Assembly: GCA_001803415.1 (NCBI GenBank)
Contig: MHDC01000011.1
Coordinates: 4,642-68,641 of the forward strand
Source: Microgenomates group bacterium RBG_16_45_19
Lineage (GTDB): Bacteria; Patescibacteriota; Microgenomatia; UBA1400; RBG-16-45-19
Direction of reading: 5' to 3'
DNA: 64,000 nt
Position numbers and translations under genes: made by a program. Below, one piece after another: positions 44,238 to 63,604 of this stretch; within the stretch, counting starts at the first letter, position 1, and each line of letters opens with the position of its first letter. Below the pieces are notes generated by a model. That model worked only from the letters and a program-made list of their open reading frames with translations, did no database searches and was not told where the DNA came from.

Positions 44238-44254
44238 ACCTAAAATAGGATCGA

Positions 44255-44283
44255 GTATTTAGTATTTAGGATTTAGGATTCAG
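44255..44283. repeat. heptamer tandem repeat block
   Basis: AGTATTT AGTATTT AGGATTT AGGATTC immediately upstream of yidC, followed by a 7-bp-stem inverted repeat (TCAGGGT-caaaaca-ACCCTGA). Confidence 0.65.
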
Positions 44284-44361
44284 GGTCAAAACAACCCTGA
44301 TTGAATCAGGCCAGACTGCAGTATAACATGGAGGACTCAAGGGGTTAATCGGGTAATCGCG

Positions 44362-45303: not shown

Positions 45304-45585
45304 TTAGACAACTTTGGTTAGATCAACCTGACTACGGAACTCTTCATAACATTTGAGACAATAGACAATCATGCCTTTGTCGGGATTAACTGTAGTCACC
45401 ATGCTCTGACCACATTTAGCGCATAGATATTTATAGAATTGGCGCTCATTTCTCAAACTAAGACGACGCTGATGACGACAGTCAGGACAATTAGTCGGCA
45501 GAGGTAAACCCATTCTCTTATAGAAAGCTAATTCCTGAGTAATGAGCTTAAACGCTTTAGAACAAGTTTGACATTTTTGCGGCAT
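45304..45585 (-). CDS. zinc-ribbon protein (two CxxC pairs x2)
   Basis: CQTC...CPDC and CAKC...CLKC. Confidence 0.5.
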   Translation of the reverse strand: MPQKCQTCSKAFKLITQELAFYKRMGLPLPTNCPDCRHQRRLSLRNERQFYKYLCAKCGQSMVTTVNPDKGMIVYCLKCYEEFRSQVDLTKVV

Positions 45586-45600
45586 ACTTAATGAGTATGA

Positions 45601-47901: not shown

Positions 47902-47925
47902 ATTGTAACAGATCAGGGGAAAAAC

Positions 47926-48141
47926 TTAGGGCAAGAGGTCGGGGCCGGGGGCAACGCCGGGGCGGCAGCGGCTGACACGTTTAAGGCAGAGCCAACCACC
48001 CTTAATCAAACCGTAGCGTCTAAAGGCTTGGTCACAGTAATGGCTGCAACTGGGGGTAAAGCGACAACTATTGGGCGGCAGACCAAAACTTAAAAGCAGG
48101 GCCAGAAAAATGGATTTGAAAGCACGATAGAGATGAAACAT
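47926..48141 (-). CDS. yidD: membrane protein insertion efficiency factor YidD
   Basis: [19 protein letters not shown]...RCRPG. Confidence 0.85.
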
Positions 48142-48144
48142 AGG

Positions 48145-48456
48145 CTAGGGAGAAGAGGAGAGGGATTTTAAATAGTCGGTAAAGGCAGCCGGGTCGATAA
48201 CGTCAGAGGCAACCACTAACAACATGTCTTGAGCCGGCAAACCGGAGGCAAAGCGAATAAAACAACCGTGAAGTTGGCGTTTGAGGCGGTTGCGGGCTAC
48301 GGCCGATTTGAGGACCCGGTTGGGAATGATCACGGCCAAGCGCGGCCGAGCCAAGGGATTGGGACGAGTAATCAAGGTAAAGCCAGGAAAACGCTGGGTA
48401 GCGCCGGTAAAACGAGCCGCTGGTTTGAGAGGTAAACGATTGGCCCGGGGAAGCAT
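48145..48456 (-). CDS. rnpA: RNase P protein component
   Basis: VARNRLKRQL (RNR motif). Confidence 0.85.
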   Translation of the reverse strand: MLPRANRLPLKPAARFTGATQRFPGFTLITRPNPLARPRLAVIIPNRVLKSAVARNRLKRQLHGCFIRFASGLPAQDMLLVVASDVIDPAAFTDYLKSLSSSP

Positions 48457-48470
48457 GAGGCCATTATAGC

Positions 48471-48605
48471 TTAAGCCGCCAGGCGCCGACGACTCTTAAG
48501 GCGACGGTGGTGTAAGACGGACCGACCGGGTTTGGTCTTTTGGCGAGCTCTAAAGCCATGAGTTTTTTGGTAATGGCGTTTTTTGGGTTGATAAGTACGC
48601 TTCAT
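48471..48605 (-). CDS. rpmH: 50S ribosomal protein L34
   Basis: Absent from the ORF track (44 aa). Translated by hand: [44 protein letters not shown]. Confidence 0.9.
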
Positions 48606-48610
48606 AAATA

Positions 48611-48650
48611 TAATGAGCAAGGAACAAGGAACAATGAGTAATAAGTAGTA
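48611..48650. repeat. heptamer tandem repeat block
   Basis: AATGAGC AAGGAAC AAGGAAC AATGAGT AATAAGT in the rpmH-dnaA divergent spacer. Confidence 0.7.
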
Positions 48651-48713
48651 TATAGGGAGAAGCAGAGGAGAACAAGAAGGCTATATGGTTCGGGTTTTTT
48701 GGGGATTGAATAA

Positions 48714-48722
48714 TGTGGATAA
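48714..48722. promoter_or_regulatory. perfect DnaA box (TGTGGATAA = TTATCCACA) upstream of dnaA
   Basis: Exact 9-mer in the rpmH-dnaA divergent spacer. Confidence 0.5.
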
Positions 48723-48798
48723 CTTTATTAGGCTGTGTTTCACTTGCCTTTGGTTCATCCCTGGTATTGTGGTTATAACTGCCTTAAAGGATAGGGTT

Positions 48799-50184
48799 AT
48801 GGAAGTGAAGCAGATGTGGAAAATTGTATTTGAGGATTTACAAGTGTCGATGTCGAGCGCCACTTTTTCCAGTTGGATCAAACCGTTAAGTTTACAGGCG
48901 ATGGCGGCAGTCGGGGAATCGCGACTGATTGCGGACATCGTTTGCCCATCCCCGTTTCACATTAATATTGTGGAGCAACGCTATTACGCTCAGATCAAAG
49001 ATGCTTTTGATCGGGCGACAGACAAACAAACGGAACTACGCTTTAGCGTGGGCGCTACCCCAGTCAAGACAACCATCAAAACCCCCTTAGGACCACTGTT
49101 TAAAACAGCAGGTCCGAATAACGGGCTACCGACTATGGCCATGCGTCGAGTGGGGTTGCGTAAAGATTTCAATTTTGATTCCTTTGCGGTGTCCACCACC
49201 AACGAAATGGCGCATGCGGCCGCCAAGGCTGTCAAAGATCATTTTGGGGCGGCGTATAACCCCCTGTTTATTTACGGTGGGGTGGGCGTGGGTAAAACCC
49301 ACTTGATGCAAGCGATTGCCCAAGCCAGACTATATGACAAGCCACAGACAACCATGATTTATTGTATGGGGGAAGAATTTACCAATGAAATCATTGACGC
49401 CATCCAGCAAAAGACAACTCGGGACTTTAAAAAGCGTTATCGGCTAGTCAAGGGCTTGTTTATTGATGATATCCAATTTATTGCCGGGAAAACGACGGTC
49501 CAGGAAGAATTTTTTCATACCTTTAATGCCATTTTGAAGGGGGGCGGCCAAGTGGTGTTAACCAGTGACAAACCACCGCAAGAAATCCCGCAGTTGGAAG
49601 CCAGACTAAAATCCCGATTTGAAGCTGGGCTGATTGTGGATATCGGCGAACCAGACTTTGAATTGAGGACGGCGATCACTTTGATCAAAGCCAAACAGCG
49701 GCAAATCCCGATCGGGATGGCAGAGGCACAACTAATCGCCGGCAACATTGAAAGCGCCCGAAAAATCGAGGGTTTTTTAGTCAAGTTGGCAACCGAAGCC
49801 CAGATTAGAAAACACGCCGTCGACAACGCCATGATTCAAGGTATGCTGGGGAAAGAGTCCCGGCCGACCGAGGGGTCAATTCCCCCGCTAAGGCCAAATG
49901 AAATTATCCGGGGGGTAGCTAAGTATTTCGATCTACCGGCCAAAGAAATTACCGGCAGTGGGCGGGCGGCGCGGTTGGTCTTGTCCAGGCACACAGCCAT
50001 GTACCTAATGCGGATTGATTACAACTTACCGTTAACGGAAATCGGTTATTTGTTTTCTAATCGCGATCACACGACGGTAATGCACGCGGTGAATAAAATT
50101 ACCCTGGAGTTAAAAAATTCCAGTCTGATGCGAACGACTATTGGCGACTTACGGCAGCAGCTGTATGCCAGCTATAAAGCATAA
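48799..50184 (+). CDS. dnaA: chromosomal replication initiator DnaA
   Basis: AAA+ region (YNPLFIYGGVGVGKTHLMQAIA) and a C-terminal DnaA box-binding domain. Start at the ATG at 48799 (AAAGGA RBS). Confidence 0.92.
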   Translation: MEVKQMWKIVFEDLQVSMSSATFSSWIKPLSLQAMAAVGESRLIADIVCPSPFHINIVEQRYYAQIKDAFDRATDKQTELRFSVGATPVKTTIKTPLGPLFKTAGPNNGLPTMAMRRVGLRKDFNFDSFAVSTTNEMAHAAAKAVKDHFGAAYNPLFIYGGVGVGKTHLMQAIAQARLYDKPQTTMIYCMGEEFTNEIIDAIQQKTTRDFKKRYRLVKGLFIDDIQFIAGKTTVQEEFFHTFNAILKGGGQVVLTSDKPPQEIPQLEARLKSRFEAGLIVDIGEPDFELRTAITLIKAKQRQIPIGMAEAQLIAGNIESARKIEGFLVKLATEAQIRKHAVDNAMIQGMLGKESRPTEGSIPPLRPNEIIRGVAKYFDLPAKEITGSGRAARLVLSRHTAMYLMRIDYNLPLTEIGYLFSNRDHTTVMHAVNKITLELKNSSLMRTTIGDLRQQLYASYKA

Positions 50185-50402
50185 ACCGTGGAGAAACCGG
50201 GGGAAAGTAGTTGAGAGAGAGTTTAACAAGTGAATAAATTGGAGGCGGCGGCGGATAAGTGAAGAACTGTCCACCATCGTCAACCCGAGTTTTCCAGGGG
50301 CTTCAACACACCAAAACAACCCGATATAGTTGAGAGCGAAAGCGGCGATTGTCCACCTATCCACAAGACTACTACTATAGACTACTAAAATAATATAAAG
50401 AA
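50185..50402. promoter_or_regulatory. putative oriC (dnaA-dnaN intergenic)
   Basis: DnaA-box-like 9-mers cTATCCACA (50357-50365), TTGTCCACC and TGTCCACCA, followed by an AT-rich stretch (ACTACTACTATAGACTACTAAAATAATATAAAG) just before dnaN. Confidence 0.45.
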
Positions 50403-51533
50403 ATGGAGAAAAGTATGGAAATACAAGTTTTGAAAGAAAACCTGCTAAGAGCCTTAACGATTGCGGTTAAGTTTAGCGCTCAGAAAGCCCAGTTGCCGGT
50501 GTTAGCTCACGTCTTATTGGAAGCGACCAAAACCGGCATTTACCTCGCGGCGACCGACTTGGATACCGGGATTCGGTTGAGATTTGCCGGGAAAGTGGTC
50601 ATGCCAGGGTCGGTGGCCGCGCCAGCTAGGTTATTGAATGAGTACATCGGCGTGTTGCCGCTGGGGGTGGTTGAGATCAGCAGTCAAAAAGAGAAGCTGA
50701 CCGTCAAAGCCAAGGGGTCGCGGGCAACAATGCAAATTCTGGCAGACAGCGAGTTCCCTACATTTAGCCAGGCGACACCAGCAGCAAAATTGGGGGAAAT
50801 TAAGATGGTGGATTGGCTAGGGAGCTGGCAAAAGCTGGAAACAGCGGTGTCAAAAGACTTAACCAGGCCAGTCTTAACCGGAGTCTTGTGGGAGATGGGG
50901 GAGGGGCGACTGGTGGCAACCGACGGTTACCGCTTAAGCCTGGTGGAGAGGGAGGCGTTTAATTTTGAGGGGGCGAAAGAAAAGATCGTGGTTAACGGCA
51001 GTTTCTGGGGCATGTCGGCGAAAACCATGGCCGATTTACAGGTAGATACAGCCGAAATCTATTGGTTGAAACAAGAGAAGCAACTGCTGTTAAAAACCGA
51101 CGACGTGATGATGGTGGGGAGACTGGTTGAGGGAGAATTCCCTCAGTATCAAGCCATTTTACCAAAAGGTAAAAACGTGGTGGTGACCGTGGAGCGGGAA
51201 AGTTTTTTGCAGGCGGTGCGTGGGGCAATGATTTTTGCCCGTGACAGCGCTCAAATTGTGAAATTAACCATCACCAAGCAAGCGTTAATGGTGGCAGCAG
51301 CAGCCCAGAGCGGTGGGGCGGAAACGGTGCTGGCGGCTGAGCAGGAGGGGGGCGAGTTGACGACGGCCTTTAACGGCAAGTTTTTGAGTGATTTTTTAAG
51401 CCGAGGACAAAGTGAGCAGGTGACGATGGCTTTGGATGAAGCGTTAAAACCGGGAATGTTTACCGAAGTGGGGGAGAAGCAGTATCGGCACGTGATTATG
51501 CCGATTAGGCTGCGGGAGCCGGCGGCGGGCTAA
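50403..51533 (+). CDS. dnaN: DNA polymerase III beta sliding clamp
   Basis: Three-domain beta-clamp pattern. Follows dnaA. Confidence 0.9.
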   Translation: MEKSMEIQVLKENLLRALTIAVKFSAQKAQLPVLAHVLLEATKTGIYLAATDLDTGIRLRFAGKVVMPGSVAAPARLLNEYIGVLPLGVVEISSQKEKLTVKAKGSRATMQILADSEFPTFSQATPAAKLGEIKMVDWLGSWQKLETAVSKDLTRPVLTGVLWEMGEGRLVATDGYRLSLVEREAFNFEGAKEKIVVNGSFWGMSAKTMADLQVDTAEIYWLKQEKQLLLKTDDVMMVGRLVEGEFPQYQAILPKGKNVVVTVERESFLQAVRGAMIFARDSAQIVKLTITKQALMVAAAAQSGGAETVLAAEQEGGELTTAFNGKFLSDFLSRGQSEQVTMALDEALKPGMFTEVGEKQYRHVIMPIRLREPAAG

Positions 51534-52257
51534 AAGGTGGGGGGGTCGGGGGGGGGGGGGGGGGGGCTTTGAGCGAGGCCACGGCTTGAGTCAGGGGGGA
51601 GGCATAATCGTTGGCCGAGGAGAGGCTGGCGGATTCACCGGCGTCAGGATTGTAGGCGACATAGAAGAGATGAATCAGTTCCTGGGTGGTGAGTTGGCGG
51701 GCGGAAAGATTCAGGTGAGTCAGTTGACGCAGGAGGTGGTCGCGCTTGGGCTCGAGAGAGCTTAAAGCTTTTTGGATGATATAGGTTTTATCATAGGGCA
51801 GTTTTTTGGGTTTGGAACTGGTGGGTAAGGGTAAGGCAGACTTGGAGGTTAAGCCGAGTTCGATGGCTGAGAAAGGAATGACAATATAGAATTTTTTGTC
51901 GAGGACGTTGCGTTCCTTGACGATGATCTCGACGAATTGGCGGTATTGTTCGATGCGAGCCCGAAGAACAGGGCTTAACTGGCGGACCTCCTGAGCCTTG
52001 AGTAGTTTCAAGTAATTGGTAATGTCTTTGCGCTGAGAGCGGATGAGGATTTGAATGGGGAAGGAGAGAGAATTTAAGAGGCCGGCGTAGACGTAGATCA
52101 AGCCGTCTTGTTCTTCTTCGGAGAGAAGATTAAAGTTGATGGCGCTAACTTTGAGGACCATGCAGGCCGAACCGTCGCGGAGAAGAACCAGATTAGAAAC
52201 AACATCTTCAATATCCAGATTTTCTTGAGTGGTGGAGCGAATGGGGGTGACGGGCAT
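51505..52257 (-). CDS. hypothetical protein with a polyproline C-terminus; weak resemblance to a VirB4/TraC N-terminal domain
   Basis: The N-terminal region (IEDVVSNLVLLRDGSACMVLKVSAINFNLLSEEEQDGL) resembles the first domain of VirB4/TrbE proteins. The C-terminus (APPPPPPTPPPFSPPP) is encoded by the C19 run and overlaps the dnaN 3' end by 29 nt. Confidence 0.35.
   Translation of the reverse strand: MPVTPIRSTTQENLDIEDVVSNLVLLRDGSACMVLKVSAINFNLLSEEEQDGLIYVYAGLLNSLSFPIQILIRSQRKDITNYLKLLKAQEVRQLSPVLRARIEQYRQFVEIIVKERNVLDKKFYIVIPFSAIELGLTSKSALPLPTSSKPKKLPYDKTYIIQKALSSLEPKRDHLLRQLTHLNLSARQLTTQELIHLFYVAYNPDAGESASLSSANDYASPLTQAVASLKAPPPPPPTPPPFSPPPAPAA
51539..51566. repeat. G7-TC-G19 homopolymer tract
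   Basis: Read directly: 7 G, then TC, then 19 consecutive G, immediately after the dnaN stop and inside the 3' end of the minus-strand ORF (poly-Pro codons). Confidence 0.9.
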
Positions 52258-52364
52258 GGTTAGCAACGAGCGACTAGGGCTTCGCAACTAGAAATCGATT
52301 TAATGATACTAATATACTGATTGGATTAGTGGTTTGCGAGTCGCTAGTTGCAAGTCGCGAATCA

Positions 52365-53381
52365 CTAGCTTTGGGCTTGGATCTTAAGCGGTTGGATGAC
52401 TTGTCCCCTGAGATCCAACTTGATTATAGCAAAGGTGTGGCCAGGAGCGTCGATTTCCAATTCATAAGTGCCGTTTTTTAAGGGAGTGTTGGAGGCAAAT
52501 TGCCCCAGGCGGTTGGTTTTGGTGGCGCGGACCGGGAGGCCGTCGCTGGAGCGGATTTCAATGATGGCGTTTTCAACCAAGCGGCCGACCGGATCAAGCA
52601 CCATGCCGATAATGGTGTTAGGGATGGTTGGCAGAGAGGGGAAAGGCAAATCGCGGCTTTCGGTGGGGGCGACGCCGGTGCTAGCGGCTGTTTGTTTGAC
52701 CAAAGTGTGGAGGGGTTTTGGGGGAGCGGGGTAGAGGGTTTGGGGCCGCGGTGCCGGAGCGGGAGCAGGGTGAGTGGTTTTGGTGACGGCGGTAGGAGCG
52801 GCGGCGGGGACGACGACCATTTTGGGGACGCCGTTGGCAGGGGGAGCCACGGGGACCTCGAGGGGCTTAAGAGTCAGTGGGGGGGTGGGGGCAGTTGAGA
52901 AAAGTTTTATGGAACGAGTAATTTGATCGGCTTCAGCTTGGTCAAGAGGAGAAACCGCGCTGTCGCTTAAGGTTTGCAGATAACTGGAGAGACCGAGACG
53001 TTTTTTGGTAATGGCCATTTCGGAGAGAGTTTTCATTTCGTCGACGGTGAGGACCGAGGCGTGAGGCACAAAGGAAAAATATTGGGGTAATTCATGACCT
53101 TTACCCCAAAGATATTGGGTGGGAGCATAGATGGCTTTAAGGAAGGCATTGAGCCATTGCTCCAGCGGGCGTTCTTGAATGGGGAGGAAGGCGGCGGCAA
53201 AGCCGGAGAAGACGGCCAGAAAAATGAGAGGCCACTTTAGGAGGAAGAAGAGGTTGGTTTTGAAGAGAGCGATAGCGATACCCAAGCCGACGACAATTTG
53301 GAGGAATTGCTTTAAGGTCATATCGCCAATGAGGCGGAATTGGTAGGTAGAGATGTTTTGAGGAATAGGGTGTTGGTTCAT
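52365..53381 (-). CDS. PrgI/VirB3-like membrane protein with a C-terminal carboxypeptidase-regulatory-like beta-sandwich domain
   Basis: N-terminus YQFRLIGDMTLKQFLQIVVGLGIAIALF plus a second TM helix (PrgI-like). A Pro-rich linker follows, then IIGMVLDPVGRLVENAIIEIRSSDG...GTYELEI. Confidence 0.4.
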   Translation of the reverse strand: MNQHPIPQNISTYQFRLIGDMTLKQFLQIVVGLGIAIALFKTNLFFLLKWPLIFLAVFSGFAAAFLPIQERPLEQWLNAFLKAIYAPTQYLWGKGHELPQYFSFVPHASVLTVDEMKTLSEMAITKKRLGLSSYLQTLSDSAVSPLDQAEADQITRSIKLFSTAPTPPLTLKPLEVPVAPPANGVPKMVVVPAAAPTAVTKTTHPAPAPAPRPQTLYPAPPKPLHTLVKQTAASTGVAPTESRDLPFPSLPTIPNTIIGMVLDPVGRLVENAIIEIRSSDGLPVRATKTNRLGQFASNTPLKNGTYELEIDAPGHTFAIIKLDLRGQVIQPLKIQAQS

Positions 53382-53387
53382 AGGGGG

Positions 53388-54314
53388 TTAGATGGCAGGG
53401 ACGATTAATTCAACCGCTACCTGAGTATCATCTGTTAATATACCGTTACCATAAAAATGGTAATAGGGGATGATTTTAGTGCCAGCTTTATCTTGGCGGT
53501 ATTCCCACCCACCTTGAGATAGATCAAGAGATTGGAATTGAGATAAGGTAGCCTGGGGAGCGGCCGTATCGCGAACGAATAAGGCTTCGGGATGAAGATA
53601 GACATTTGGTAGAGCTAAAGTAGGGGACTTTGTGGGGACGTTGCCTAAATTAGAAGTCTGGGAGGGTGGAGGAGAAAAACTTATCTTAAGGGGTTGATTT
53701 TGGCTGTTAAGAATGATATTCATATCACCTTGAAGTTGGTGATGGTAATATACGGGGATGTCGTTGAGTTGAAAGTGGAAGGGGATAATAATTCTTTGGG
53801 CAGATTGGGGTGGTAAATTGTCCTGAGGACTAAGATTAATATAATCGGGAACATTGGAAGTTAAGAGGATGTTTTCTTGATCAAGAGTAACATTATTCAG
53901 ACCGAGATCGACAGCCAGTTGTTGGGCGGCAGTAATAGCGGCAGAGACGTCGATGCCGGGTTGACTGATTAGGGGTCGAAAGTAGGAAATGGCTAAGGTG
54001 TGGTTGGCGGGGATGAGGTTTAAACTAACCTCGTTTTTAGTCCAAAGGGAGCTTGATTGGGGGTGGGGATCTAAATTGAGAGTGGTAGCCAGTTGTTGGC
54101 CAAAGAGAGAGAGGTCGGTAGGAATGATCTGGTAGGTGGGTAAGTAGGGGGGGATAGGGATGGTTGGACCAGAATAGGTAATGGTGGGTGTTTGAGTACT
54201 GGGGGTAGGAGTAGCAGGTGGGAGAGCTGGTTCCTTGGGGGTGAGGAGATAAAAAATTAAACCAATAAGGATTACTATTCCGGTGATAAAAAGAGGAAAG
54301 TATTTTTTTAGCAT
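53388..54314 (-). CDS. N-terminally anchored extracytoplasmic hypothetical protein
   Basis: Single N-terminal TM helix followed by a Pro/Thr-rich segment. Operonic with the M23 protein and the PrgI-like gene. Confidence 0.4.
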   Translation of the reverse strand: MLKKYFPLFITGIVILIGLIFYLLTPKEPALPPATPTPSTQTPTITYSGPTIPIPPYLPTYQIIPTDLSLFGQQLATTLNLDPHPQSSSLWTKNEVSLNLIPANHTLAISYFRPLISQPGIDVSAAITAAQQLAVDLGLNNVTLDQENILLTSNVPDYINLSPQDNLPPQSAQRIIIPFHFQLNDIPVYYHHQLQGDMNIILNSQNQPLKISFSPPPSQTSNLGNVPTKSPTLALPNVYLHPEALFVRDTAAPQATLSQFQSLDLSQGGWEYRQDKAGTKIIPYYHFYGNGILTDDTQVAVELIVPAI

Positions 54315-54317
54315 AAG

Positions 54318-57041
54318 TTAGGGAATAATGGGTACACTGGTAGCACCAGTAGCGGCATCATAACATTCAAGATCGATACATTGGCCGTATTGGACATTGG
54401 TCATATTTCCGGGGAAGAGACTACGAATGTCCGGGCGGCCACCGTCACAACGGACTTCGTAGTGTAAGTGGGGGCCAGAGCTATTGCCAGTGTTACCAGA
54501 TAAGCCTAATTGGGTACCGGCAGCCAGGCTAGCCCCAGCCGCTGTACCTTCAGGAATAGTGATTTGCGACATATGAGCAAAGTATAAACGGCAATTGGAT
54601 AAATTGCCGGAATTGGGGGGAGTGCCGATGTTGACGATGGCGAGGTTGCCGTAACCTTGGTTGTTCCAGCCGGCTGAGACGAGAGTCCCGGCGAAAGGTA
54701 AGATGACGGGGGCGCCTTCAGGCAGATCGATATCAATGGCCGAACCACCATTGGCATCGGTGGAAGGGTGACTTTCGGGCATATAACCATTGAAACAGAC
54801 CCGACCAATGACCGGCCAGCAAACCATCCCTTGGACATTAAAAGAGACGAGTGGACCGGTATAGGCTGGACCGGGGCCACCGTGACCCGGACCGGAAACA
54901 GCATCGGGAATGCCGTCGCCATTAGTGTCAATATATTCGGCATCAATGCCATAGCTACTCAAAGAGATGGTTTGGGCGGAGGTGAGTTTGAAGGTATGAA
55001 AATGGCGCCAGACGGACAAACCAATGATAGCACCAGTGGCGGAGACGGCTATCCAGATAGCAGCGGTACCAATGGCAGCGGCGGCAATCAGACCGACTTC
55101 AGGCAAACTGAGACCGATAGCGGCTAAGCCGGAACCGGCTTTAGCGGCCAGACCTTTAAGAGCACCACCGATAGAAGTGAGTAGGGGACGGAGAGCCGTC
55201 CCGATCTGAGTAAATGCAGCTCGAACTGTCGGTAACATTTTTTCAAAGCCAACCTTGATGACGGAAAAACCGTTTTGAATAGCCGAACCTAAAGCCCTGA
55301 ACTTGGCCGGTAATTGAGCCGCAGCGGTTTTATAGCCACCGGAGAAAAAAGTGCGAGTGGATTGGAAGGTTTGGGAAAGAAAACCACGAGTATTGGCCAA
55401 GAAACCGCCTGAGGGCTTGAGTGTAGGGAGGCCAAGCTGAGTTCGAACGTAGCGGAAAACGCCGGAGGGAGAAGCTTCGGGGATGTTTTCAAAGACTTTG
55501 GGAAAAAGGCGGCGAGCCCAGCTGTTTTTGGCCAGGATTTGCTGAGCGAGTTGAGGGAAATGCTGTTGGCGTTGATGGACGTCTGCTTGATAATAATGGA
55601 TGGCCTCGGGACTGGTTAGGGTGTGGATTAGGTCTCGGTGGTTGATTTTACCCTCGGCAAGAGCTTGAGTAATGACCGTTTGTGCTTCGGGTCTGAGGCC
55701 ATGACTGACAATATAATAAGTAGCGGTAGTAATGGAGGTGTCATCCATGGCGGCCAGATTTAGTCCATAGGGTTCGAGAAGTTGATGATGGGGAGTAAGA
55801 TTTTTAGTAACCGGTCGATGATGCTGTGGTTCCCCGCTGGTGATTAGAGACAAGCTAACGGCATGGGCGACAATGGGTTCAGCCACGGCCGCATGACGGA
55901 GGGGTGGAGGGGAATGGGTGGGGAGACTGGACTGAATGACCTGAGTAACCTCATAAGCACTCAAGGATTTAAAGGCGGATTGGGTATTAATTTCGGTTTC
56001 GATGCGGGCGGCGGTAACCGAATCGAGACCTTTTTGAATGAGGGCGTCGTAAAAAGAAGAATGATGGCTATCGAGAGTGTCAATGGCTTGAATGATAGTT
56101 TTTTGAGGGTGGCCAGAACGGAGCTGATCCTGGAGATATTTAATGGTGGTTAAGGTGTCTGAAGAGGCAGTAGGCACCAAGTGCTCCAATTGGTCGGCAG
56201 CGCCGTTAGGGTCGCCTTGGGCAATTTCGGCTCTAACTTGGTTAAGAACGGCTCTTTGGGGATAGACAGCGGTTTCAAGCTCTTGCATCAGGGTACTCTG
56301 GTGAGTCAGGTTTTCACGAGCTTTTTTAACCGCTTGATTTTCGATAAGGTCTTGAGTGATGGCGGTTAGGCTTTTTTCTAACAACTGGGGATTGTTTTTT
56401 TGAGCAAAGCGAAGAGCAGTGTTTAAACGAGTGGGGCTAGCTTCAAGAATCTTGACGGTAAACTGAGTGAGAGTTTCGGGAGTCAAAGGGAGACCATGAA
56501 GAGTGAGAGCTTGACTAATAACAGAGGCAATTTCATCTTTATTAATGTAAAGATCGGGACGAGCCAGACCAGCATTAGCAGCATTGGCAATGAGAAGGGC
56601 TTGAGCTTTTTCAGCTGCGGCAATGGCAGCGGCATTGAGTTTAGCTAGAGATTCAGCGGCGTGACGTTGAGCCTCGAGGTATTTTTGGACTTGGATGGCG
56701 GCTGGACCCTTAGTTTTAGCAGCGGCTTTGGCTAAATGAGGGACAACGGCAGTAGCTTCGCCTTTTTTGGGGGCAATTTTAAGGGTTAATTGCTGGATAG
56801 AATTGAGGAGAACTGAAGCTTCGGTAGGATTAGTCAGCGAAGCTAAGTTGACTTGGAGATGTTGAGTTAGGGGATTGGAGCGAAGATTGGCGACGAAGGC
56901 TTTAGCCAGTTCTTGCCGTAGAGTGAAGGGGATGTCGATGTCGGGATCGGCTAAGAAAGCAGCTTGCTTGAGGAGGTTGGAGTAGGTATTATCGAGCTTG
57001 ATTAGTTGATTAAGTTGAGTGTCTAAGTCAACGTCGGGCAT
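54318..57041 (-). CDS. large membrane protein with a C-terminal M23 (LytM) peptidase domain
   Basis: 907 aa: alpha-helical N-terminal 600 aa, two TM helices (GLAAKAGSGLAAIGLSLPEVGLIAAAAIGTAAIWIAVSATGAIIGL), then an M23 domain (HPSTD..., GYGNLAIV, GPHLHYEV). Confidence 0.7.
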   Translation of the reverse strand: MPDVDLDTQLNQLIKLDNTYSNLLKQAAFLADPDIDIPFTLRQELAKAFVANLRSNPLTQHLQVNLASLTNPTEASVLLNSIQQLTLKIAPKKGEATAVVPHLAKAAAKTKGPAAIQVQKYLEAQRHAAESLAKLNAAAIAAAEKAQALLIANAANAGLARPDLYINKDEIASVISQALTLHGLPLTPETLTQFTVKILEASPTRLNTALRFAQKNNPQLLEKSLTAITQDLIENQAVKKARENLTHQSTLMQELETAVYPQRAVLNQVRAEIAQGDPNGAADQLEHLVPTASSDTLTTIKYLQDQLRSGHPQKTIIQAIDTLDSHHSSFYDALIQKGLDSVTAARIETEINTQSAFKSLSAYEVTQVIQSSLPTHSPPPLRHAAVAEPIVAHAVSLSLITSGEPQHHRPVTKNLTPHHQLLEPYGLNLAAMDDTSITTATYYIVSHGLRPEAQTVITQALAEGKINHRDLIHTLTSPEAIHYYQADVHQRQQHFPQLAQQILAKNSWARRLFPKVFENIPEASPSGVFRYVRTQLGLPTLKPSGGFLANTRGFLSQTFQSTRTFFSGGYKTAAAQLPAKFRALGSAIQNGFSVIKVGFEKMLPTVRAAFTQIGTALRPLLTSIGGALKGLAAKAGSGLAAIGLSLPEVGLIAAAAIGTAAIWIAVSATGAIIGLSVWRHFHTFKLTSAQTISLSSYGIDAEYIDTNGDGIPDAVSGPGHGGPGPAYTGPLVSFNVQGMVCWPVIGRVCFNGYMPESHPSTDANGGSAIDIDLPEGAPVILPFAGTLVSAGWNNQGYGNLAIVNIGTPPNSGNLSNCRLYFAHMSQITIPEGTAAGASLAAGTQLGLSGNTGNSSGPHLHYEVRCDGGRPDIRSLFPGNMTNVQYGQCIDLECYDAATGATSVPIIP

Positions 57042-57246
57042 AAGTCAATCATACCAGAGGTTGATGGCATGAGGGGCTCAAGTTTTGGTATGATGAAAAG
57101 AGGTTGTGAGTTGGGGACAGAGAAGATATAATATAGTTATAGGTTATTATGACTAGAATGGTCAAGGAACAAGTTGAATGGGATGATATGGTGCGAGACG
57201 CGACAATCCAACGGTTTGAATATACCTTGTTCAAAACTTAACGCAT

Positions 57247-57711
57247 ATGAATGACGCCATAAGCCATAAGCCATTAGCTATAAGCCAAAAGTCTGATCCT
57301 TTCTTAGCGGATGAGTTGGATGAGAGGAGGATTGGAGTGATGGTAAAGTTTTGGGTCGAGGGGGCAGAGGAGGCGTGGGAGATTGCACAAGCATTGGATA
57401 AAAACAAAAAGTACAGTTATGCCTTGTTTTTCTGTCATTTGGCTTTGGAAAAGCAGATTAAAGCGGTGGTGGTGCGAGTGGTCAGAAAACCGCCGATTCC
57501 GTCCCACGATCTGGTGCGACTGCTCAAGATGTTGGGAATTGAATTGAACGATAGCCAAAAGGCAGAACTTAAAGAAGTTAATTCATTTAACCTTGAGGCA
57601 AGGTATGATGATTATAAGAGGCAGTTTTACTTAAAAGCAACGAAAGAGTACACAGAGAAATGGATGAAGAAGTGCGAGGAGTATTTAATATGGCTAAAAG
57701 AAAAGATATAG
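57247..57711 (+). CDS. HEPN-domain protein (HepT-like toxin)
   Basis: ALFFCHLALEKQIKA... is a HEPN helix pattern. The true start may be the ATG at 57340, which has a perfect AGGAGG RBS 9 nt upstream. In that case the upstream 93 nt, including CCATAAG-like heptamer repeats, is leader. Confidence 0.55.
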   Translation: MNDAISHKPLAISQKSDPFLADELDERRIGVMVKFWVEGAEEAWEIAQALDKNKKYSYALFFCHLALEKQIKAVVVRVVRKPPIPSHDLVRLLKMLGIELNDSQKAELKEVNSFNLEARYDDYKRQFYLKATKEYTEKWMKKCEEYLIWLKEKI

Positions 57712-58016
57712 ACCAGGAACTGCTGGTAATGATGAAGCGCTATAAAAAAGTATTGGTGACGGCGAACATTAGGCCGGAGTTTATGGCGGTGTTTGGGTCG
57801 CAAGTTAAGGGGACCGCCAAACCATATTCAGATATTGATGTTTGTATTGTGTCGAAGGATTTGTCAGCCGACCCGGTGGATGATTACGTTAGATTGTCGA
57901 TGTTGGCCGATAAGGTTGATGACCGGATCGAGCCTCACGGATTTCTACCGGAGGATTTTGACCCAACAATGGATTCACTGGCTTATGAGGTAAAGCGAAC
58001 TGGGGTAGTGATATAG
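57690..58016 (+). CDS. minimal nucleotidyltransferase (MntA-like antitoxin)
   Basis: VFGSQVKGTAKPYSDIDVCIV (GS-x9-13-DxD). Overlaps the HEPN gene by 22 nt. Confidence 0.6.
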   Translation: MAKRKDIDQELLVMMKRYKKVLVTANIRPEFMAVFGSQVKGTAKPYSDIDVCIVSKDLSADPVDDYVRLSMLADKVDDRIEPHGFLPEDFDPTMDSLAYEVKRTGVVI

Positions 58017-58028
58017 AGCCAAATATTT

Positions 58029-58472
58029 ATGAATGACCAGAAAAACCATCAACCATCAAATACTAACCAACCTCAACCCCATGACCCCTTTTTAGCCGAT
58101 GAGCTGGATGTGCTGGAGGCAGTGGCGAAGTTGGAGCAGAAGTACGGGAAAAAGATTTTAACCGAGGAGCAGAGGGGAAAACTTTTACAAGCCAGGAGGG
58201 GTGAAGGTGGGCAAACTGCTGAAGTCAGTGTAACAAAGATTAATCAATTAAAATCAATAGGTGGTATTGGACAGAAAGAAGCAGAGTGGTTGGTGGCAGC
58301 TTTAAGGGCTAAATTGAAGAATGACATTAGTAATAATTTAGGGAAATATAGCTGGGATAGTTTTAGTGAGAAACAAAAGCAATATGTGATTTCGTGTTAT
58401 TTCCAATTAGTTTACGGGACATCGGAGTACCATTTGGCGGAATTGTTGGCTGGAGGAGGCAAGAATGCCTGA
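58029..58472 (+). CDS. small protein with a helix-hairpin-helix motif
   Basis: INQLKSIGGIGQKEAEWLVAAL is HhH-like. The N-terminus shares MND...DPFLADELD with the HEPN ORF. Confidence 0.4.
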   Translation: MNDQKNHQPSNTNQPQPHDPFLADELDVLEAVAKLEQKYGKKILTEEQRGKLLQARRGEGGQTAEVSVTKINQLKSIGGIGQKEAEWLVAALRAKLKNDISNNLGKYSWDSFSEKQKQYVISCYFQLVYGTSEYHLAELLAGGGKNA

Positions 58473-61400
58473 AAGATCTGAGTTGGAAGTTTTAGTACCT
58501 CAAATGAGGCGGGTGTTGCCGCCAGAATATATGGTGGGGCCGATTGGGGAGGCGATCTTGAAACCTGATTATCGAGACTTAGATCTATTTACTCCGGAGG
58601 AATCAGCAAAAATTGTGGCAGGGATGGAAAAGTATGCCGGTGGAGATATCCGTGATTTTGATTTTTTAACAGAGAAGGTGGATGTATTGGGTGATTCGAA
58701 GGTATTAACGCCGCGTATGCCCCATTTGTTATCTGATTTAGGAGTAAGCGAATTATTAACTGGATTAGCAGACCGTAAAATTAATATTGAGCAAGTAGAT
58801 GTTGAGGATAAGCGTTTTAAGAGATTGTCTGGATTGTTAGTCGAGTTAGATAATTTTTTACGAAGCTCTGGAGGGCGTGGCGATTTACGTGATGAATTAA
58901 GTGGATTAAGCCTGGAAGATTTAAAGGAAATTGCGAGAATTGAATTAGTCGGAGCTGATGAACAGGCGGGGCGATTAAATTTTCAGGATCCAGAACGTGG
59001 AGCTCAAGATGTGCGGGAAGCGATTGAAAAATGGAGAGCAAGGAAAAACTTACATCGGGTGGTGACGATTCCGGCAGATTACTATCAGGCTGAAAGTGGT
59101 TTACCCGGGGGGCAGTTAATAGTGCCTGATGACATGTTTGTTCCAGGAACGCGGGTGATTAAACCCAATTTATTAGATCGACCAGTGATTGTGCGTCAGG
59201 TAAACGGAGGAGGGTTTGCAGTGGTGCCAATGGCGGAGAGACCACTGGTTAACATAAAAGATGATAAGCTTGGATACCGACGGGTAGTGGAACGGTTTCA
59301 AGTAATAGAGTTTGTCAAAAGATTAGCGCACGGCGAGGGCGATGAGCAACAGTTCTTAAGAGTATTGCAATTAGCTTTCAAGGCTGAGGGGTTAGATCAA
59401 GGGACGTTAATTAAAGCGTATCTACCAGGGATGAAAAAAGCGATTGAGTTTTATGATTACGCAACGAAGGCAACGGAAAAAGATGACATACGTGGGGCGA
59501 AGCAGTTTGTGATGAGTCCAATCGAACAGGCATCCTTGTTAGCAGTACCAGAATCAACGTTGTTATTTGATTTTGGTAAAGATAAGGCAGGGAATGAAAG
59601 GTTAGCCCCCTTTTATATTGGGGTGAATAGGGTGGTGGATTCGTTGTGGGGGGATTATGGCCGGTGGAAGAAACAGGAAGGGGAATGGTTGTTTATTCAC
59701 CCATATAGTCCTAATGAACCGAAGGTACTCTCAGCCTTTCGACCTGAGTTGAGGGGGATGTTACGTCCGGTATATGTACCGGAAGAAGACCCGATGAGAA
59801 TAGGTCGCACAATTGCGGCCCAAGAAATGTATACGATGCAGCCAATGATGCGGGAAGAATTGGGGGGGATTAGTTGGTATGAGCAAACCACAAATGAAAT
59901 GAAAGCTTTTGTTGCCGAGAGGAATTGGAGTTTTGATGAGTTGGTGGGGATTCGGGGGGTTTTATTTGACAATGGGAGACCTTTAGTGATTTCCTCTAAG
60001 AAAATACAGGAGAAAATAGCGGAGGCGGGCGGAAACGTTAGTGCTGGAATTGAAATGATGTTGCAAACACCAATGTTTGCAACACACGTTGAAGAATTAG
60101 TAGCTGGTTGGGGATTGTCAGCTCTCTTTCAGAGAGAACGGAGGGGAGATTTGTTACTGGCGTCTGATTTTGTCAGTGAATTAGCAATAAATATGGGGAT
60201 GAGGGATGCCCATACAAAGAAATATTTACTTTTACCACCTGAAACAATCCGGATGGTGCGGAATTGGCATAAAGAATTTGAATTTTGGAAAAAGGAATAT
60301 GTTGATTGGATGATAATAGCCTTGAAAAGCAAGAAGGGATTTAGGGCAACTTTTAGAAATGTATTAAATCCGGATAACTCGCCAGAAATTGCCCCGATTT
60401 GTTTTAGGAATGAAACAAATGCAGACGGTAGCCTGAAAAGTATTGCACAGAAAATTGGCGAATTAGAGAGTAAAAATAAGATTGGGGAGTTAAGCGATGA
60501 AGAACTGATTTTGTGGAATAATTTAAAGAATGGAACGACATTGGTGGAGGCATTGTTGTATGGGCGAAATGAGTGGGGGTTTTCGACTGTTTTTCGTAAT
60601 ATGGCAAATGGACTGGTGGATTTAAGTAATAAGGCTAAAGAAGCGCGGAAGGATGGTAAAACTGGTAAAGCCGAAGGGCTAGAAAAGTTAGCTAGGGACT
60701 TAAAGGTTAAGGCATTTAAGACCTATGTGCTGGGATATAGTGATTTAGCGCCTAATGCTTTTAGACGCGGACAACAGCAGATAGGCCCGCTTTTACAGAC
60801 GGTGCAGGAAGATCAGGAAATGATGGAATGGCTTGCGGATTTTAATTTTGGGCCTTTATTAGATTCAGTGGGAGACCAATCTGGGGTGAAGGATCCGATC
60901 GGGCGAACGTCTTTAACAGGATTTTCACTATGTATGAAGATGCGAGGTTCGCGCAATATTATGGTGGGTGAAGTAGATAAGCCAGGGAAATATATTACCA
61001 AATATCCTTATGTAGCGGCGGAGTTGGGATCAAGTATGTTAGCGGCGGTACCGACGTTAAATAATGCCATAAACTCAATGATTATGAATTTAGCTTTTGG
61101 GAAACCGGACCGTTTAGAGGCAATGAGTGCGGACCAATTTGGAGAGGCTTTGGCCAAGATGGTGGTGGACTGGTTATTTGTAGGAATGCGGTCACAATCA
61201 GAGACTTCACAACTATTAAAGGAAGGGATTGAGGCGTTTGTAGATAAAGCTTTGATAAATACTGCTCACCTGTCGGCTTTGGAGGGGGAAGAACTAGTAG
61301 CTAATACTTTTAGGGAAATTCATCGAGTATCTCAAGGGATGATTGACACGGCACTGATTTACCAAAAATCGTTTAGGCGTGAAAGCGTGGAAGAAAGTAA

Positions 61401-61926
61401 GGTTGACTTGGCTACTAAGAGAGCTGGGGTTCAATATCTATCATTTGATGGGAACGACCCGTTGGCGGTTGAAGTAATAAGAGGTGCGGGATTTGATACA
61501 AATTATCCGTCTGAGATCGCTGGCAAGAAACCGTATGTGTCGTTGGGTGATGAAGCGTTGGATTTAGCGAGCGTAGAGGTGATTGCAGGTTTTGTGGAGG
61601 GGGGTGTGAATGTGAAAGAAGTATTAAGAAAAGTATCTAGTTTTAGCGCGTATGGACACCGGGGGGCGGAAGCGTTGACAGTGATAATTATGTCAATGTT
61701 TGCACGAGATAAGCTGTTGTATTCTAAAGAGCGAGAGGATCTTTTATTATCAACTCTAAAGATTGATAGAAGTTTTTTTGAAAGAATTAAGTATATCGCA
61801 GCGGTGAAATTACTAGAAATTGAAGAAGCTGAAGGAGGTGAAGTTGTACAAGTATCTAAAGATAATGAAGAGAGTGAGGCTCCATCAGCGACTAAAGAGA
61901 ATGAAGGTGGCGAGATTCCAGATTAG
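58465..61926 (+). CDS. 1153-aa orphan protein with no recognisable domain
   Basis: Long uninterrupted ORF overlapping the upstream gene by 8 nt. About 43% GC with TTA/AAA/AAT-rich codon use, unlike the rest of the window. No TM segments or catalytic motifs recognised. Acidic C-terminus. Confidence 0.6.
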   Translation: MPERSELEVLVPQMRRVLPPEYMVGPIGEAILKPDYRDLDLFTPEESAKIVAGMEKYAGGDIRDFDFLTEKVDVLGDSKVLTPRMPHLLSDLGVSELLTGLADRKINIEQVDVEDKRFKRLSGLLVELDNFLRSSGGRGDLRDELSGLSLEDLKEIARIELVGADEQAGRLNFQDPERGAQDVREAIEKWRARKNLHRVVTIPADYYQAESGLPGGQLIVPDDMFVPGTRVIKPNLLDRPVIVRQVNGGGFAVVPMAERPLVNIKDDKLGYRRVVERFQVIEFVKRLAHGEGDEQQFLRVLQLAFKAEGLDQGTLIKAYLPGMKKAIEFYDYATKATEKDDIRGAKQFVMSPIEQASLLAVPESTLLFDFGKDKAGNERLAPFYIGVNRVVDSLWGDYGRWKKQEGEWLFIHPYSPNEPKVLSAFRPELRGMLRPVYVPEEDPMRIGRTIAAQEMYTMQPMMREELGGISWYEQTTNEMKAFVAERNWSFDELVGIRGVLFDNGRPLVISSKKIQEKIAEAGGNVSAGIEMMLQTPMFATHVEELVAGWGLSALFQRERRGDLLLASDFVSELAINMGMRDAHTKKYLLLPPETIRMVRNWHKEFEFWKKEYVDWMIIALKSKKGFRATFRNVLNPDNSPEIAPICFRNETNADGSLKSIAQKIGELESKNKIGELSDEELILWNNLKNGTTLVEALLYGRNEWGFSTVFRNMANGLVDLSNKAKEARKDGKTGKAEGLEKLARDLKVKAFKTYVLGYSDLAPNAFRRGQQQIGPLLQTVQEDQEMMEWLADFNFGPLLDSVGDQSGVKDPIGRTSLTGFSLCMKMRGSRNIMVGEVDKPGKYITKYPYVAAELGSSMLAAVPTLNNAINSMIMNLAFGKPDRLEAMSADQFGEALAKMVVDWLFVGMRSQSETSQLLKEGIEAFVDKALINTAHLSALEGEELVANTFREIHRVSQGMIDTALIYQKSFRRESVEESKVDLATKRAGVQYLSFDGNDPLAVEVIRGAGFDTNYPSEIAGKKPYVSLGDEALDLASVEVIAGFVEGGVNVKEVLRKVSSFSAYGHRGAEALTVIIMSMFARDKLLYSKEREDLLLSTLKIDRSFFERIKYIAAVKLLEIEEAEGGEVVQVSKDNEESEAPSATKENEGGEIPD

Positions 61927-61942
61927 GGAGTAGGTGAATTGG

Positions 61943-63604
61943 TTAAGATACTTCAGACGAAGGCTTCTGTTCCTTACCAGTGGTTCCAATGTTGACGGGT
62001 GTAGATCTACCAAGATTGCGGAGTCTATTGTACTGGGTATGAGTCATACGTTCCCCGGTGGTACTAACGTCACTACTGGCGGCGGCATCTTTACTAACTG
62101 CTCTGCCAGCTTTGTATTTTTGCCACCAACCACCGATATTCTGGGCGGTATACGATAAGCCAACTTGAGTGGCCGCGCCACCAACCATAGCAAATGGAGC
62201 TCTGATGACCCCATAACCGCGTTTGGCGTTTTCGAAGGCCTGAGCGCCGTATTTGTCTTCTTCCACTTTTAGGAATCCCTTGACTATTTTAACCACTTCG
62301 GGTAGTAACATTATAAACCCGAGGCCAATGATGGCCTGGATGGTGCGGGGGCCAAACTCTTCAGTTTCACCTTGGTTGACCCAGGTTATACCCCTGGAGG
62401 TGATGAGGGGAGGGACGAAGCCAGTGTAGTCGGTGCCTCCACCTTCACCAAAGCCAAAACCAGCCCGTTGTTCCCCAGAAGGGGTGATGCCCATACTGGC
62501 AACTGAGTCACCTCCAGCCAGGAAAGCGCCAATGACTACCATGATGATGACGGCCGGGAAAACAGCAGCGTTGGAAATGAGATTTTTTATCCAGGAGCTA
62601 AAAGTACTGGAACCGGGGAAGGCGTTGGTGAGGAGTTGAATGGGAGCGAAGATAACACCGACAATGATACCAATGTAGGCGGAGAGGAGGCCGAAAAAGG
62701 TGCGAAACATGGCGATAAAGATGGCAATGGCGATAGCCAGGTAGAAGACGGAGTCGAGAATCCAATCAAATATACCACCGGGAAGACCAACGAGTCCTTG
62801 AACCATAGCGGAAACAGCATTAGCCGTATCGCCGGCCACTTCCATAGGGGAAATAAAATACTTAATGCCGATGCGGAAGATGCTTAAGCCAAAGAGAGCA
62901 TTAGCAGCAGTGGTGAGGTCGCTGATGATGCCGGCGGCTTCCAGGATGCTTAAAGCCCCCATGCCAACGAGATAGATAAGATCAACGACAAAGCCGGCGA
63001 TGGCATAGGAAAAGGTGATCAGGATAAGGGTGATGATTAGCTTGGGTAAGGCTGCCTGAATGGTGACCACGGTCTGTTGGTCGATTTGAGCCCGAAACAT
63101 AATCATGAAACCGACGACTATAAAGACAATGATAAAGAGGAAATAAGAGACATTGCGAAAAGCTTTCCAGACTTGAAGGATGGGGGAAAGGGAGGAGAAA
63201 CCAAGACCTTGGGCGTAAGCCTGGGGAACTAAATGAGTGTTTTTAAGGACATCAGCCAGATATTCGCCAGTAGTAGCAGGAGGAACAACGGCGATGTAAC
63301 TAATACCTTGGGCTAAGACGGCCACCGCCCCTCCGTAGTGATAATTAAAAGTACCGTCGGTGTTTTCGGTGGCCTCAATGGAATAGAAAGATTGACCGAC
63401 ATTGGTGGTGTCGGCTCCCCAACCTTCTTTGGAGAATTTAGCCATATTGAGAGGCTGGTCATCTTCGGCGGCCTTGATGAAATCTTTCATGTTTCGAGCT
63501 TGGATTTGAGAGAGATGAGGGAAGAAGTTGGGAATGATGAGGAGAGAAATCCCGATGAGGTAGAGAATTAAATGAGAATGAGGCAGAAGTTTAGAGAGGG
63601 ACAT
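61943..63604 (-). CDS. VirB6/TrbL-like polytopic membrane protein
   Basis: 553 aa with at least six strongly hydrophobic helices, a Gly-rich extracytoplasmic loop and a hydrophilic C-terminal tail. This is the architecture of VirB6 / PrgH-TcpH-like proteins. Confidence 0.45.
   Translation of the reverse strand: MSLSKLLPHSHLILYLIGISLLIIPNFFPHLSQIQARNMKDFIKAAEDDQPLNMAKFSKEGWGADTTNVGQSFYSIEATENTDGTFNYHYGGAVAVLAQGISYIAVVPPATTGEYLADVLKNTHLVPQAYAQGLGFSSLSPILQVWKAFRNVSYFLFIIVFIVVGFMIMFRAQIDQQTVVTIQAALPKLIITLILITFSYAIAGFVVDLIYLVGMGALSILEAAGIISDLTTAANALFGLSIFRIGIKYFISPMEVAGDTANAVSAMVQGLVGLPGGIFDWILDSVFYLAIAIAIFIAMFRTFFGLLSAYIGIIVGVIFAPIQLLTNAFPGSSTFSSWIKNLISNAAVFPAVIIMVVIGAFLAGGDSVASMGITPSGEQRAGFGFGEGGGTDYTGFVPPLITSRGITWVNQGETEEFGPRTIQAIIGLGFIMLLPEVVKIVKGFLKVEEDKYGAQAFENAKRGYGVIRAPFAMVGGAATQVGLSYTAQNIGGWWQKYKAGRAVSKDAAASSDVSTTGERMTHTQYNRLRNLGRSTPVNIGTTGKEQKPSSEVS

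Follow-up and report, generated by a model that had tools for sequence, protein, structure and literature searches.

What kind of unit is the string of four plus-strand genes that lies within a type IV secretion system (T4SS)-like locus of the Microgenomates group bacterium RBG_16_45_19? The stretch, positions 57247-61926 of the 64,000-nucleotide window analysed here (contig MHDC01000011.1), encodes a HEPN-domain protein, a minimal nucleotidyltransferase (MNT), a small protein of 147 amino acids (aa) and a large protein of 1153 aa, and is bordered on both sides by minus-strand genes. The initial annotation, made from the DNA letters, took it for a single low-GC island, which could be a HEPN/MNT-guarded defence or effector module or a large T4SS substrate. 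Our analysis favours, with a probability of about 0.5, a composite of two units that would be transcribed as one string: a conserved pair formed by the small and large genes, and a HEPN/MNT insert. The features of the stretch and its borders are as follows.

57247..57711, plus strand: HEPN-domain gene, putative toxin (154 aa; Pfam PF05168)
57247..57324, plus strand: N-terminal leader (MNDAISHKPLAISQKSDPFLADELD-E) that adds ~25-26 codons to the HEPN gene; its source is the small gene's 5′ end
57690..58016, plus strand: MNT gene, putative antitoxin (108 aa; Pfam PF01909; alternative upstream ATG at 57660)
58029..58472, plus strand: small partner gene (147 aa), after a 12-nt gap behind MNT
58465..61926, plus strand: large gene (1153 aa; unknown fold, predicted soluble), its start overlapping the small gene by 8 nt
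57104..57132, plus strand: promoter-like site TTGTGA-17-TATAAT in the divergent intergenic region, 5′ of the four-gene string (10/12 consensus match; putative function)
57155-57128, minus strand: promoter-like site matching the consensus and facing the M23 operon
54318..57041, minus strand: M23 peptidase gene (907 aa, one transmembrane (TM) region; PF01551, E=2.9e-15), which opens a divergent T4SS-like operon
61943..63604, minus strand: gene for a VirB6-like polytopic membrane protein (553 aa; ~6-7 hydrophobic segments), convergent with the large gene

The coordinates of the open reading frames (ORFs) bore out the co-directional order of the four genes and their 22-nt and 8-nt overlaps; the HEPN/MNT overlap is 22 nt if MNT starts at 57690 and would be 52 nt if the ATG at 57660 were used. 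Pfam and TM prediction likewise confirmed the minus-strand flanks, the M23 protein upstream and the polytopic VirB6-like protein downstream. One promoter-like site precedes the HEPN gene, and a consensus scan found none between MNT and the 147-aa gene, which makes the single operon proposed earlier a reasonable call: the four genes are probably co-transcribed. A DNA repeat scan found no flanking direct or inverted repeats suggestive of a mobile element around the stretch, and no tRNA or Rfam family was detected in the 64-kb window. The stop codons of the large and VirB6-like genes are 16 nt apart (61926-61943) with no terminator-like hairpin, and the convergent transcripts would collide or overlap.

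The small and large genes

The pair of small and large genes was found in the same slot of a T4SS-like locus in 8/8 independent contexts recovered. In this slot a minus-strand M23 gene is followed by the plus-strand small and large genes and by the minus-strand VirB6-like gene, beyond which lie a large SLT-like gene and arrays of PF18895 pilin genes. Small-protein homologs were located directly 5′ of every complete large-protein homolog, and the coupling of the two genes was tight in every locus, with the 8-nt overlap in the window and overlaps or gaps of <=3 nt elsewhere. Across loci, large proteins were 33-40% identical to that of the window; the corresponding values were 34-44% (VirB6-like) and 40-41% (PrgI). 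The pair is thus as diverged as the machine genes, which argues that it was inherited together with the machine. On this synteny and divergence the pair appears to be a resident, vertically inherited part of a Patescibacteria T4SS-like locus. The idea of a single four-gene foreign island finds no support in this constant position and machine-like divergence, nor in the low GC content of the pair in every lineage examined, described below. One locus, L002 (CAZVUJ010000050.1), is labelled 'uncultured Pseudomonadales' yet has the Patescibacteria-type small/large/VirB6-like order, and is probably mis-binned.

The large protein is 100% identical to the annotated hypothetical protein A2W24_00400. 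Searches of Pfam, NCBIfam, PADLOC and PHROGs gave no match for it or for any of the 10 family members, and TM prediction found no TM-like segment, in keeping with its earlier description as a cytoplasmic-type protein with no recognisable domain. Its description as an orphan was half right: the protein is rare, but an exhaustive HMMER search identified a real family, with 10 representatives at E<1e-3 among 1.84 billion searched, the complete ones about 1100-1230 aa long. A word-indexed profile search recovered no further homologs, tblastn against plasmids gave no match, a scan of JGI metagenome contigs for the protein yielded none, and a scan of genome contigs yielded one locus. The conserved part of the family is the C-terminal half (residues ~500-1100), with invariant columns from G504 to D1082; the C-terminus is acidic and predicted to be disordered, features that are not diagnostic of a translocation signal.

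Structural comparison of the large protein produced little. A sequence profile search of the PDB returned noise only (E=0.13-0.57), and a gapped alignment with DNA polymerase beta was rejected as a chance match. An AlphaFold2 (AF2) model built from the 10 sequences was of moderate confidence (pLDDT 59.9, pTM 0.41), and one built from 2 sequences was useless (pLDDT 31.8). A fold search with the AF2 model gave no confident match, so that no housekeeping fold emerged and no function could be read from structure either.

The small protein (isoelectric point (pI) 7.8) has a conserved N-terminal module at residues ~19-58 (DPFLADELDVLEAV...LTEEQRGKLLQARRG) and a C-terminal motif, W..QK.Y...YF..YG, that is specific to the window's large-protein family. 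Its label as a helix-hairpin-helix protein did not survive inspection. The match to RuvA was weak (E=1.2e-3; 18.6 bits against a cut-off of 85), there was no Pfam match, and GGIGQKEA of the window protein corresponds to EGISLEQA, QQLSREQA and NGLSLENA in homologs, so that the G-I-G hairpin is not conserved. Beyond RuvA, the small protein had no match in Pfam, NCBIfam, PADLOC or PHROGs. The N-terminal module was also present 5′ of an unrelated large protein in the loci L011 and L013.

Base composition had set the four genes apart in the initial annotation. The GC contents of the four genes are 0.42, 0.46, 0.42 and 0.43, below those of their neighbours as had been noted, but the two flanking genes are at 0.50 and 0.49 rather than 52-55%, and window patches at 1-2 kb, 11-13 kb and 25-27 kb are as low as the four-gene stretch. 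In L003, L006, L010, L002 and L011 the pair lies 3-15 GC points (mostly 4-11) under its neighbours; examples of low-GC slot genes are L006 7249-11122, L011 3214-6330 and L002 909-5106. As the pair is low in GC in every lineage examined, low GC appears to be an old property and not a sign of recent import. The slot occupant of L011, although unrelated in sequence, is equally low in GC, and strand alone is an insufficient explanation. Genes for PIN-domain (VapC-like) toxins occur in other low-GC patches of the window, at 11496-12002 (minus strand), 12865-13323 (plus) and 29289-29708 (plus); three such genes suggest that toxin–antitoxin (TA) modules are frequent in this genome and generally low in GC.

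The codon contrast between the four genes and their neighbours, which had also been put forward, is mostly a strand effect. Leu, Ala and Gly codon choice differs radically between the two strands: at third codon positions G is well above C in all plus-strand genes of the window, and C well above G in all minus-strand ORFs but one. The minus-strand genes favour CTC/CTT/GCC/GCT, and not CTG/TTG/GCG as had been stated. Compared with other plus-strand genes, the four-gene stretch is moderately enriched in TTA (0.45 vs 0.29) and AAT (0.78 vs 0.60), which is the part of the codon claim that held, and AAA, said to be preferred, is depleted (0.50 vs 0.63). Across window positions 1-64000, GC skew of the plus strand stays above zero in almost all 1-kb bins (up to +0.39), and the cumulative curve is monotonic and does not turn at dnaA/dnaN (48685-51533). 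The C-rich strand carries most of the genes, and strand-linked composition of this kind is also seen in the related loci L003, L006 and L010.

The HEPN/MNT pair and its leader

The HEPN and MNT domains were both substantiated. The HEPN protein matches Pfam PF05168 with E=1.4e-16 (61.2 bits against a cut-off of 22) over residues 33-152, and its family-invariant residues include H64, E68, K69, H87, R119 and Y120. With respect to the Rx4-6H motif, the invariant R119 is followed by YDDY-K124 with no H; R80-x6-H87 is present in the window protein but R80 is not conserved. Its closest homologs are 34-53% identical single-domain proteins, one of which (P0016) is annotated as coming from Gottesmanbacteria, another Microgenomates-group genome. 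The MNT matches PF01909 (E=5.7e-9) and PF18765 (1.6e-7) and carries the motif G36-S37-x10-D48-I-D50 (GSx10DxD).

HepT/MntA-like pairs constitute the type VII TA systems and include Shewanella oneidensis SO_3166/SO_3165 and the HEPN/MNT pair of Aphanizomenon flos-aquae. Their usual gene order is mntA-hepT, as in L004, the reverse of the HEPN-MNT order in the window. The window pair shares with type VII systems two small, overlapping, co-directional genes that encode a PF05168 HEPN protein and a GSx10DxD minimal nucleotidyltransferase. It differs from them not only in having HEPN before MNT, but also in belonging to the PF05168 branch rather than to DUF86/HepT, in its R119-YDDY-K sequence, in an MNT that falls below the MntA equivalog cut-off, and in the ~25-26-aa leader from the neighbouring T4SS-slot gene, which is unique to the window HEPN.

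Co-occurrence of the two pairs was then compared across loci. The large-protein homologs were always found in T4SS loci, and HEPN/MNT was absent upstream of the small gene in 3/5 loci with a known upstream region (L003, L006-8 and L002). In L004 an MNT gene is followed by a HepT (PF01934) gene; this module is of another family and runs in the reverse order. For L001, the closest relative, the upstream sequence spans 31 nt, too little for its HEPN/MNT state to be read. In a wider survey of TA genes, 46 ORFs from the gap that precedes the large gene included 23S_rRNA_IVP (5), AbiEii (2), HicA (2), HicB (2), HepT, MNT, PIN and NYN. Of 112 small ORFs taken as a control from the same loci, 63 were pilins, and the 25 listed families included extracytoplasmic function (ECF) sigma factors and one TA-type match (23S_rRNA_IVP). 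As the control is dominated by tight operons, these counts point to a permissive hot spot rather than to a specific link with HEPN.

PADLOC, run on the four proteins, matched the MNT only, to the generic candidate families PDC-S09 and PDC-M05A, and gave no match for the HEPN, small or large protein. Together with the absence of HEPN/MNT from several loci and the presence of other TA families in the slot, this leaves the proposed HEPN/MNT-guarded defence module without support. Judged from sequence, HEPN/MNT appears to be an accessory, ordinary insert of the type VII-like TA kind, a unit separate from the small and large genes. We infer TA activity from its domains, and it probably acts as a selfish or stabilising TA element.

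The HEPN protein begins with a copy of the start of the small protein. The N-terminus of HEPN (MNDAISHKPLAISQKSDPFLADELD) and that of the small protein (MNDQKNHQPSNTNQPQPHDPFLADELD) matched each other in BLASTP with E=6e-7, and this leader motif has only two occurrences in the six-frame translation of the window. All other HEPN homologs (29/29) are 113-138 aa long, and of 12 that were aligned, 9 have their start at precisely window residue 27 and 3 close to it. Since no HEPN homolog has the leader, it is a piece of the small gene's 5′ end, captured in a lineage-specific event. Searching the 90 loci and the window with a hidden Markov model (HMM) of the N-terminal module of the small protein revealed no further carrier; the model is too short to detect the HEPN leader. 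Over the nine codons of DPFLADELD, the HEPN and small genes show 5 synonymous and 0 non-synonymous differences (P about 3e-4 for random placement). If the two copies stem from separate alleles of the small gene, these differences could be older than the fusion, so that this pattern does not prove selection on the HEPN leader.

The HEPN/MNT module landed between the promoter of the slot and the small gene. Its HEPN gene thereby became joined to ~25 codons from the start of the small gene, which is itself now headed by a second copy of its 5′ end. The leader is probably a scar of this insertion. The 5′ side of the slot is a hot spot for the arrival of TA modules, which can recombine there with the resident gene.

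A variable slot beside the VirB6-like gene

A profile of the VirB6-like protein retrieved 80 metagenome loci, 43 of them with enough flank for the neighbouring gene to be counted. In 41/43 loci the next gene was a convergent ORF of 640-1400 aa. BLAST clustering divides these slot ORFs into at least 24 groups; a TM-like segment is missing from most of the ORFs, and none of 38 has a Pfam domain. All-vs-all hhalign, iterative HMM and motif-block HMM comparisons linked only clusters c0 and c9, and none to the window's family. A block that seemed conserved in a MAFFT alignment of all slot proteins did not hold up on follow-up with an HMM.

The small-protein profile also matched ORFs 5′ of an unrelated 904-996-aa protein in L011, L012, L015 and L013. 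Identities of the machine proteins of L011, L013 and L003 to those of the window are 52, 43 and 40% for VirB6-like, 41, 40 and 40% for PrgI, and 53, 60 and 57% for TraC-like. The large proteins of L011 and L013 are unrelated to the window family despite machine genes that are as close to the window as those of L003. Between L003 and L013 the VirB6-like proteins are 57% and the TraC-like proteins 69% identical; their large proteins are unrelated, and their small proteins are 69% identical over residues 1-48/51 only and unrelated after. A recombination breakpoint is thus located inside the small gene (L003 7964-8383 vs L013 14550-14888), among machine genes that are 43-69% identical. Exchange thus affected the large gene together with the 3′ half of the small gene, and the N-terminal module was kept.

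The large protein may therefore be sought among the materials that the machine handles. We tentatively regard it as a lineage-variable, T4SS-associated cargo (a substrate or a host-interaction factor) with a cognate small adaptor, at somewhat less than even odds. The large T4SS substrate proposed in the initial annotation thus stands as a lead; it fits the context evidence best, and context is what it is drawn from. The slot between the M23-peptidase operon and the VirB6-like/transglycosylase/pilin operon nearly always holds a large ORF, whose sequence differs between lineages past recognition. The small protein would serve the large one as a translationally coupled adaptor or chaperone: its N-terminal module would contact some conserved component of the machine, and the cargo would be held by its variable C-terminal half.

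Pairs of a chaperone or adaptor with its substrate include VirE1-VirE2 of Agrobacterium, CagF-CagA of H. pylori and the adaptor-effector pairs of type VI secretion systems. By analogy, the window pair resembles these in having a small gene directly 5′ of, and translationally coupled to, the gene of a large soluble protein in a secretion locus. It has no sequence or fold similarity to them, and its small protein has a near-neutral pI of 7.8, unlike the strongly acidic VirE1. Polymorphic toxin and effector loci combine a conserved N-terminal delivery module with exchangeable C-terminal cargo. The slot may be likened to these as well, as a conserved N-terminal module of ~50 aa is retained while the cargo is exchanged, and the start of the same leader is also fused to HEPN. 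In the window, however, the module is on the small partner and not on the large protein, the large proteins have no detectable toxin domain, and there is no evident immunity gene for the large protein. A bolder proposal, which we consider improbable, is that the N-terminal ~25-50 residues of the small protein (DPFLADELDVLEAV) would be a portable recruitment signal for the Patescibacteria T4SS, attached by recombination to two unrelated ~1000-aa proteins through their small partners and to the HEPN RNase, the latter then being a T4SS-delivered toxin directed against the host or competitors, with MNT as its immunity protein. If so, no substrate of this essential secretion system would have been identified before the slot proteins.

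Several observations weigh against a cargo with its adaptor beside a TA insert. Many loci have a large protein without a recognisable small partner, and to these an adaptor does not apply. The rate at which the large protein evolves inside its family does not exceed that of the machine genes, which would also fit a structural component. The unrelated slot proteins, instead of replacing one another, could belong to a single ultra-divergent family, two cases that sequence and profile methods cannot tell apart. Neither homology nor fold evidence gives the large protein a function, the AF2 model being only moderately confident, and no T4SS translocation signal is defined for this system. The HEPN family is without the textbook Rx4-6H after its invariant R119, and the MNT scores 35.6 bits on NCBIfam MntA, under the 60-bit cut-off.

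Some of these points would be accommodated if the pair were a non-secreted cytoplasmic component or regulator of the T4SS-like machine, such as a recruitment platform, an assembly factor or a stand-in for the relaxosome or coupling function, with the slot proteins forming one ancient family. The strict position beside the VirB6-like gene in 41/43 loci, the similar sizes and mostly TM-free sequences of the slot proteins, and a divergence within the family equal to that of the machine genes are all consistent with this. So are the invariant charged and aromatic residues in the C-terminal half, which resemble an active site or interface. In addition, published work on Patescibacteria T4SSs gives a recognisable relaxase and some core subunits (VirB8; VirB6 in Microgenomatia) as missing or too diverged for detection. 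Comparable loci nevertheless carry large proteins without similarity although their VirB6-like, PrgI and TraC-like proteins are 40-69% identical, hhalign probabilities between clusters are below 1%, and the breakpoint inside the small gene points to a cassette exchange that would be unusual for a core subunit. A machine component is for these reasons rather unlikely, and ranks behind an exchangeable cargo with a small adaptor.

Two explanations remain. Were the pair a recently acquired foreign or selfish element, without functional link to the T4SS locus whose permissive gap it occupies, this would account for a GC content under that of the neighbours, for the rarity of the family, for the TA genes that accumulate in the same gap and for the evident exchange of the large gene between lineages. 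Such an element would not be expected at the same position, in the same orientation and with the same partner in lineages 26-40% identical; low GC is common to all lineages, including the unrelated c2 occupant; integrase, transposase, repeats and tRNA were not found at the borders; and a convergent large ORF is near-universal beside the VirB6-like gene. We thus give recent acquisition little chance. Still less credible is a single defence or abortive-infection system made up of all four genes, with HEPN/MNT as the guard or a coupled partner of the 1153-aa effector. Such a system is favoured by probable co-transcription, by the leader that HEPN has in common with the small protein, and by HEPN/MNT-type pairs that directly precede the large gene in the window, L004 and L058, three independent lineages. 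The three instances are of different families and gene orders, however; the pair occurs without HEPN/MNT in L003, L006-8 and L002; HicAB, AbiE, PIN and IVP genes are found in the same slot, as fits a permissive insertion site; and PADLOC recognised neither HEPN nor the small or large protein, whose large-protein homologs always lie in T4SS loci and not in defence islands.

The Patescibacteria T4SS is essential for epibiotic growth in the one tractable species, and three papers (PMC10633639, PMC12102498, PMC12857230) present the material that it moves as unknown. A large, mostly predicted soluble protein that is fixed in position and hypervariable in sequence is a candidate for a transported or host-contacting factor, and its pattern could be surveyed across thousands of genomes of the candidate phyla radiation. 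The HEPN/MNT pair, apart from its leader, is of a known kind, as is the Patescibacteria T4SS; the slot is not described in the accessible portions of the genomic survey or the transposon sequencing study. The pair is therefore a candidate accessory module that turns the question of what this T4SS handles into a testable list.

The surrounding T4SS-like locus

To the left of the four-gene stretch, T4SS-like genes are interleaved with housekeeping genes over positions 40744-57041: the VirB4-like gene, small ORFs, YidC (43485-44237), the VirD4-like gene, dnaA, dnaN and the operon from the TraC/TrsD-like gene to the M23 gene.

40744-42555: VirB4-like gene (P-loop_TraG, 3.2e-27)
45601-47901: VirD4-like gene, resembling a type IV coupling protein (T4CP-like; TrwB_AAD_bind, 4.4e-9)
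48685-51533: dnaA/dnaN
51505-57041, minus strand: TraC/TrsD-like, PrgI/VirB3-like, bitopic 308-aa and M23 genes (PrgI, 2.5e-7; weak match to TraC_F_IV)

The end of an SLT-like gene lies to the right of the VirB6-like gene. Homologs of the VirB6-like protein, 33-52% identical, adjoin T4SS pilin arrays and PrgI and TraC-like genes in related loci, where the VirB6-like gene is located between the slot and the SLT-like and pilin genes. The protein is polytopic and without a match in Pfam or NCBIfam; VirB6 is described as hard to detect in Microgenomatia in PMC12102498.

The published layout of Patescibacteria T4SSs, as given by Quinonero-Coronel et al. 2025 (PMC12102498), is related to MPF-FATA (mating pair formation), lies near dnaA/dnaN and has no relaxase. 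The window has the same VirB4-like, T4CP-like, PrgI/VirB3, TraC/TrsD-like, hydrolase and VirB6-like genes by dnaA/dnaN as are reported in that paper and by Wang et al. 2023 (PMC10633639), and it shares with them the absence of a relaxase; VirB2-like pilin arrays are likewise present in relatives of the window locus. These two papers list the machine components and call the substrate unknown, and in their accessible portions a large soluble protein convergent with the VirB6-like gene, with a small partner, is not described. The S. epibionticum cluster SEML1_0006-0019 has no obvious equivalent of the large and small pair.

The window ends before the pilin-array region. In related loci, arrays with as many as seven divergent PF18895 T4SS pilin genes, together with a gene for an ECF sigma factor, are repeatedly found beside the VirB6-like and SLT-like genes (L004 13776-17668 and many of L011-L090). 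On the other side of the slot, the M23 protein consists of an N-terminal region of ~640 aa, a single TM region and a C-terminal peptidase; between loci only the M23 end aligns, the N-terminal part being poorly conserved. The gene order of the M23 operon is the same in L003, L006, L011 and L013.

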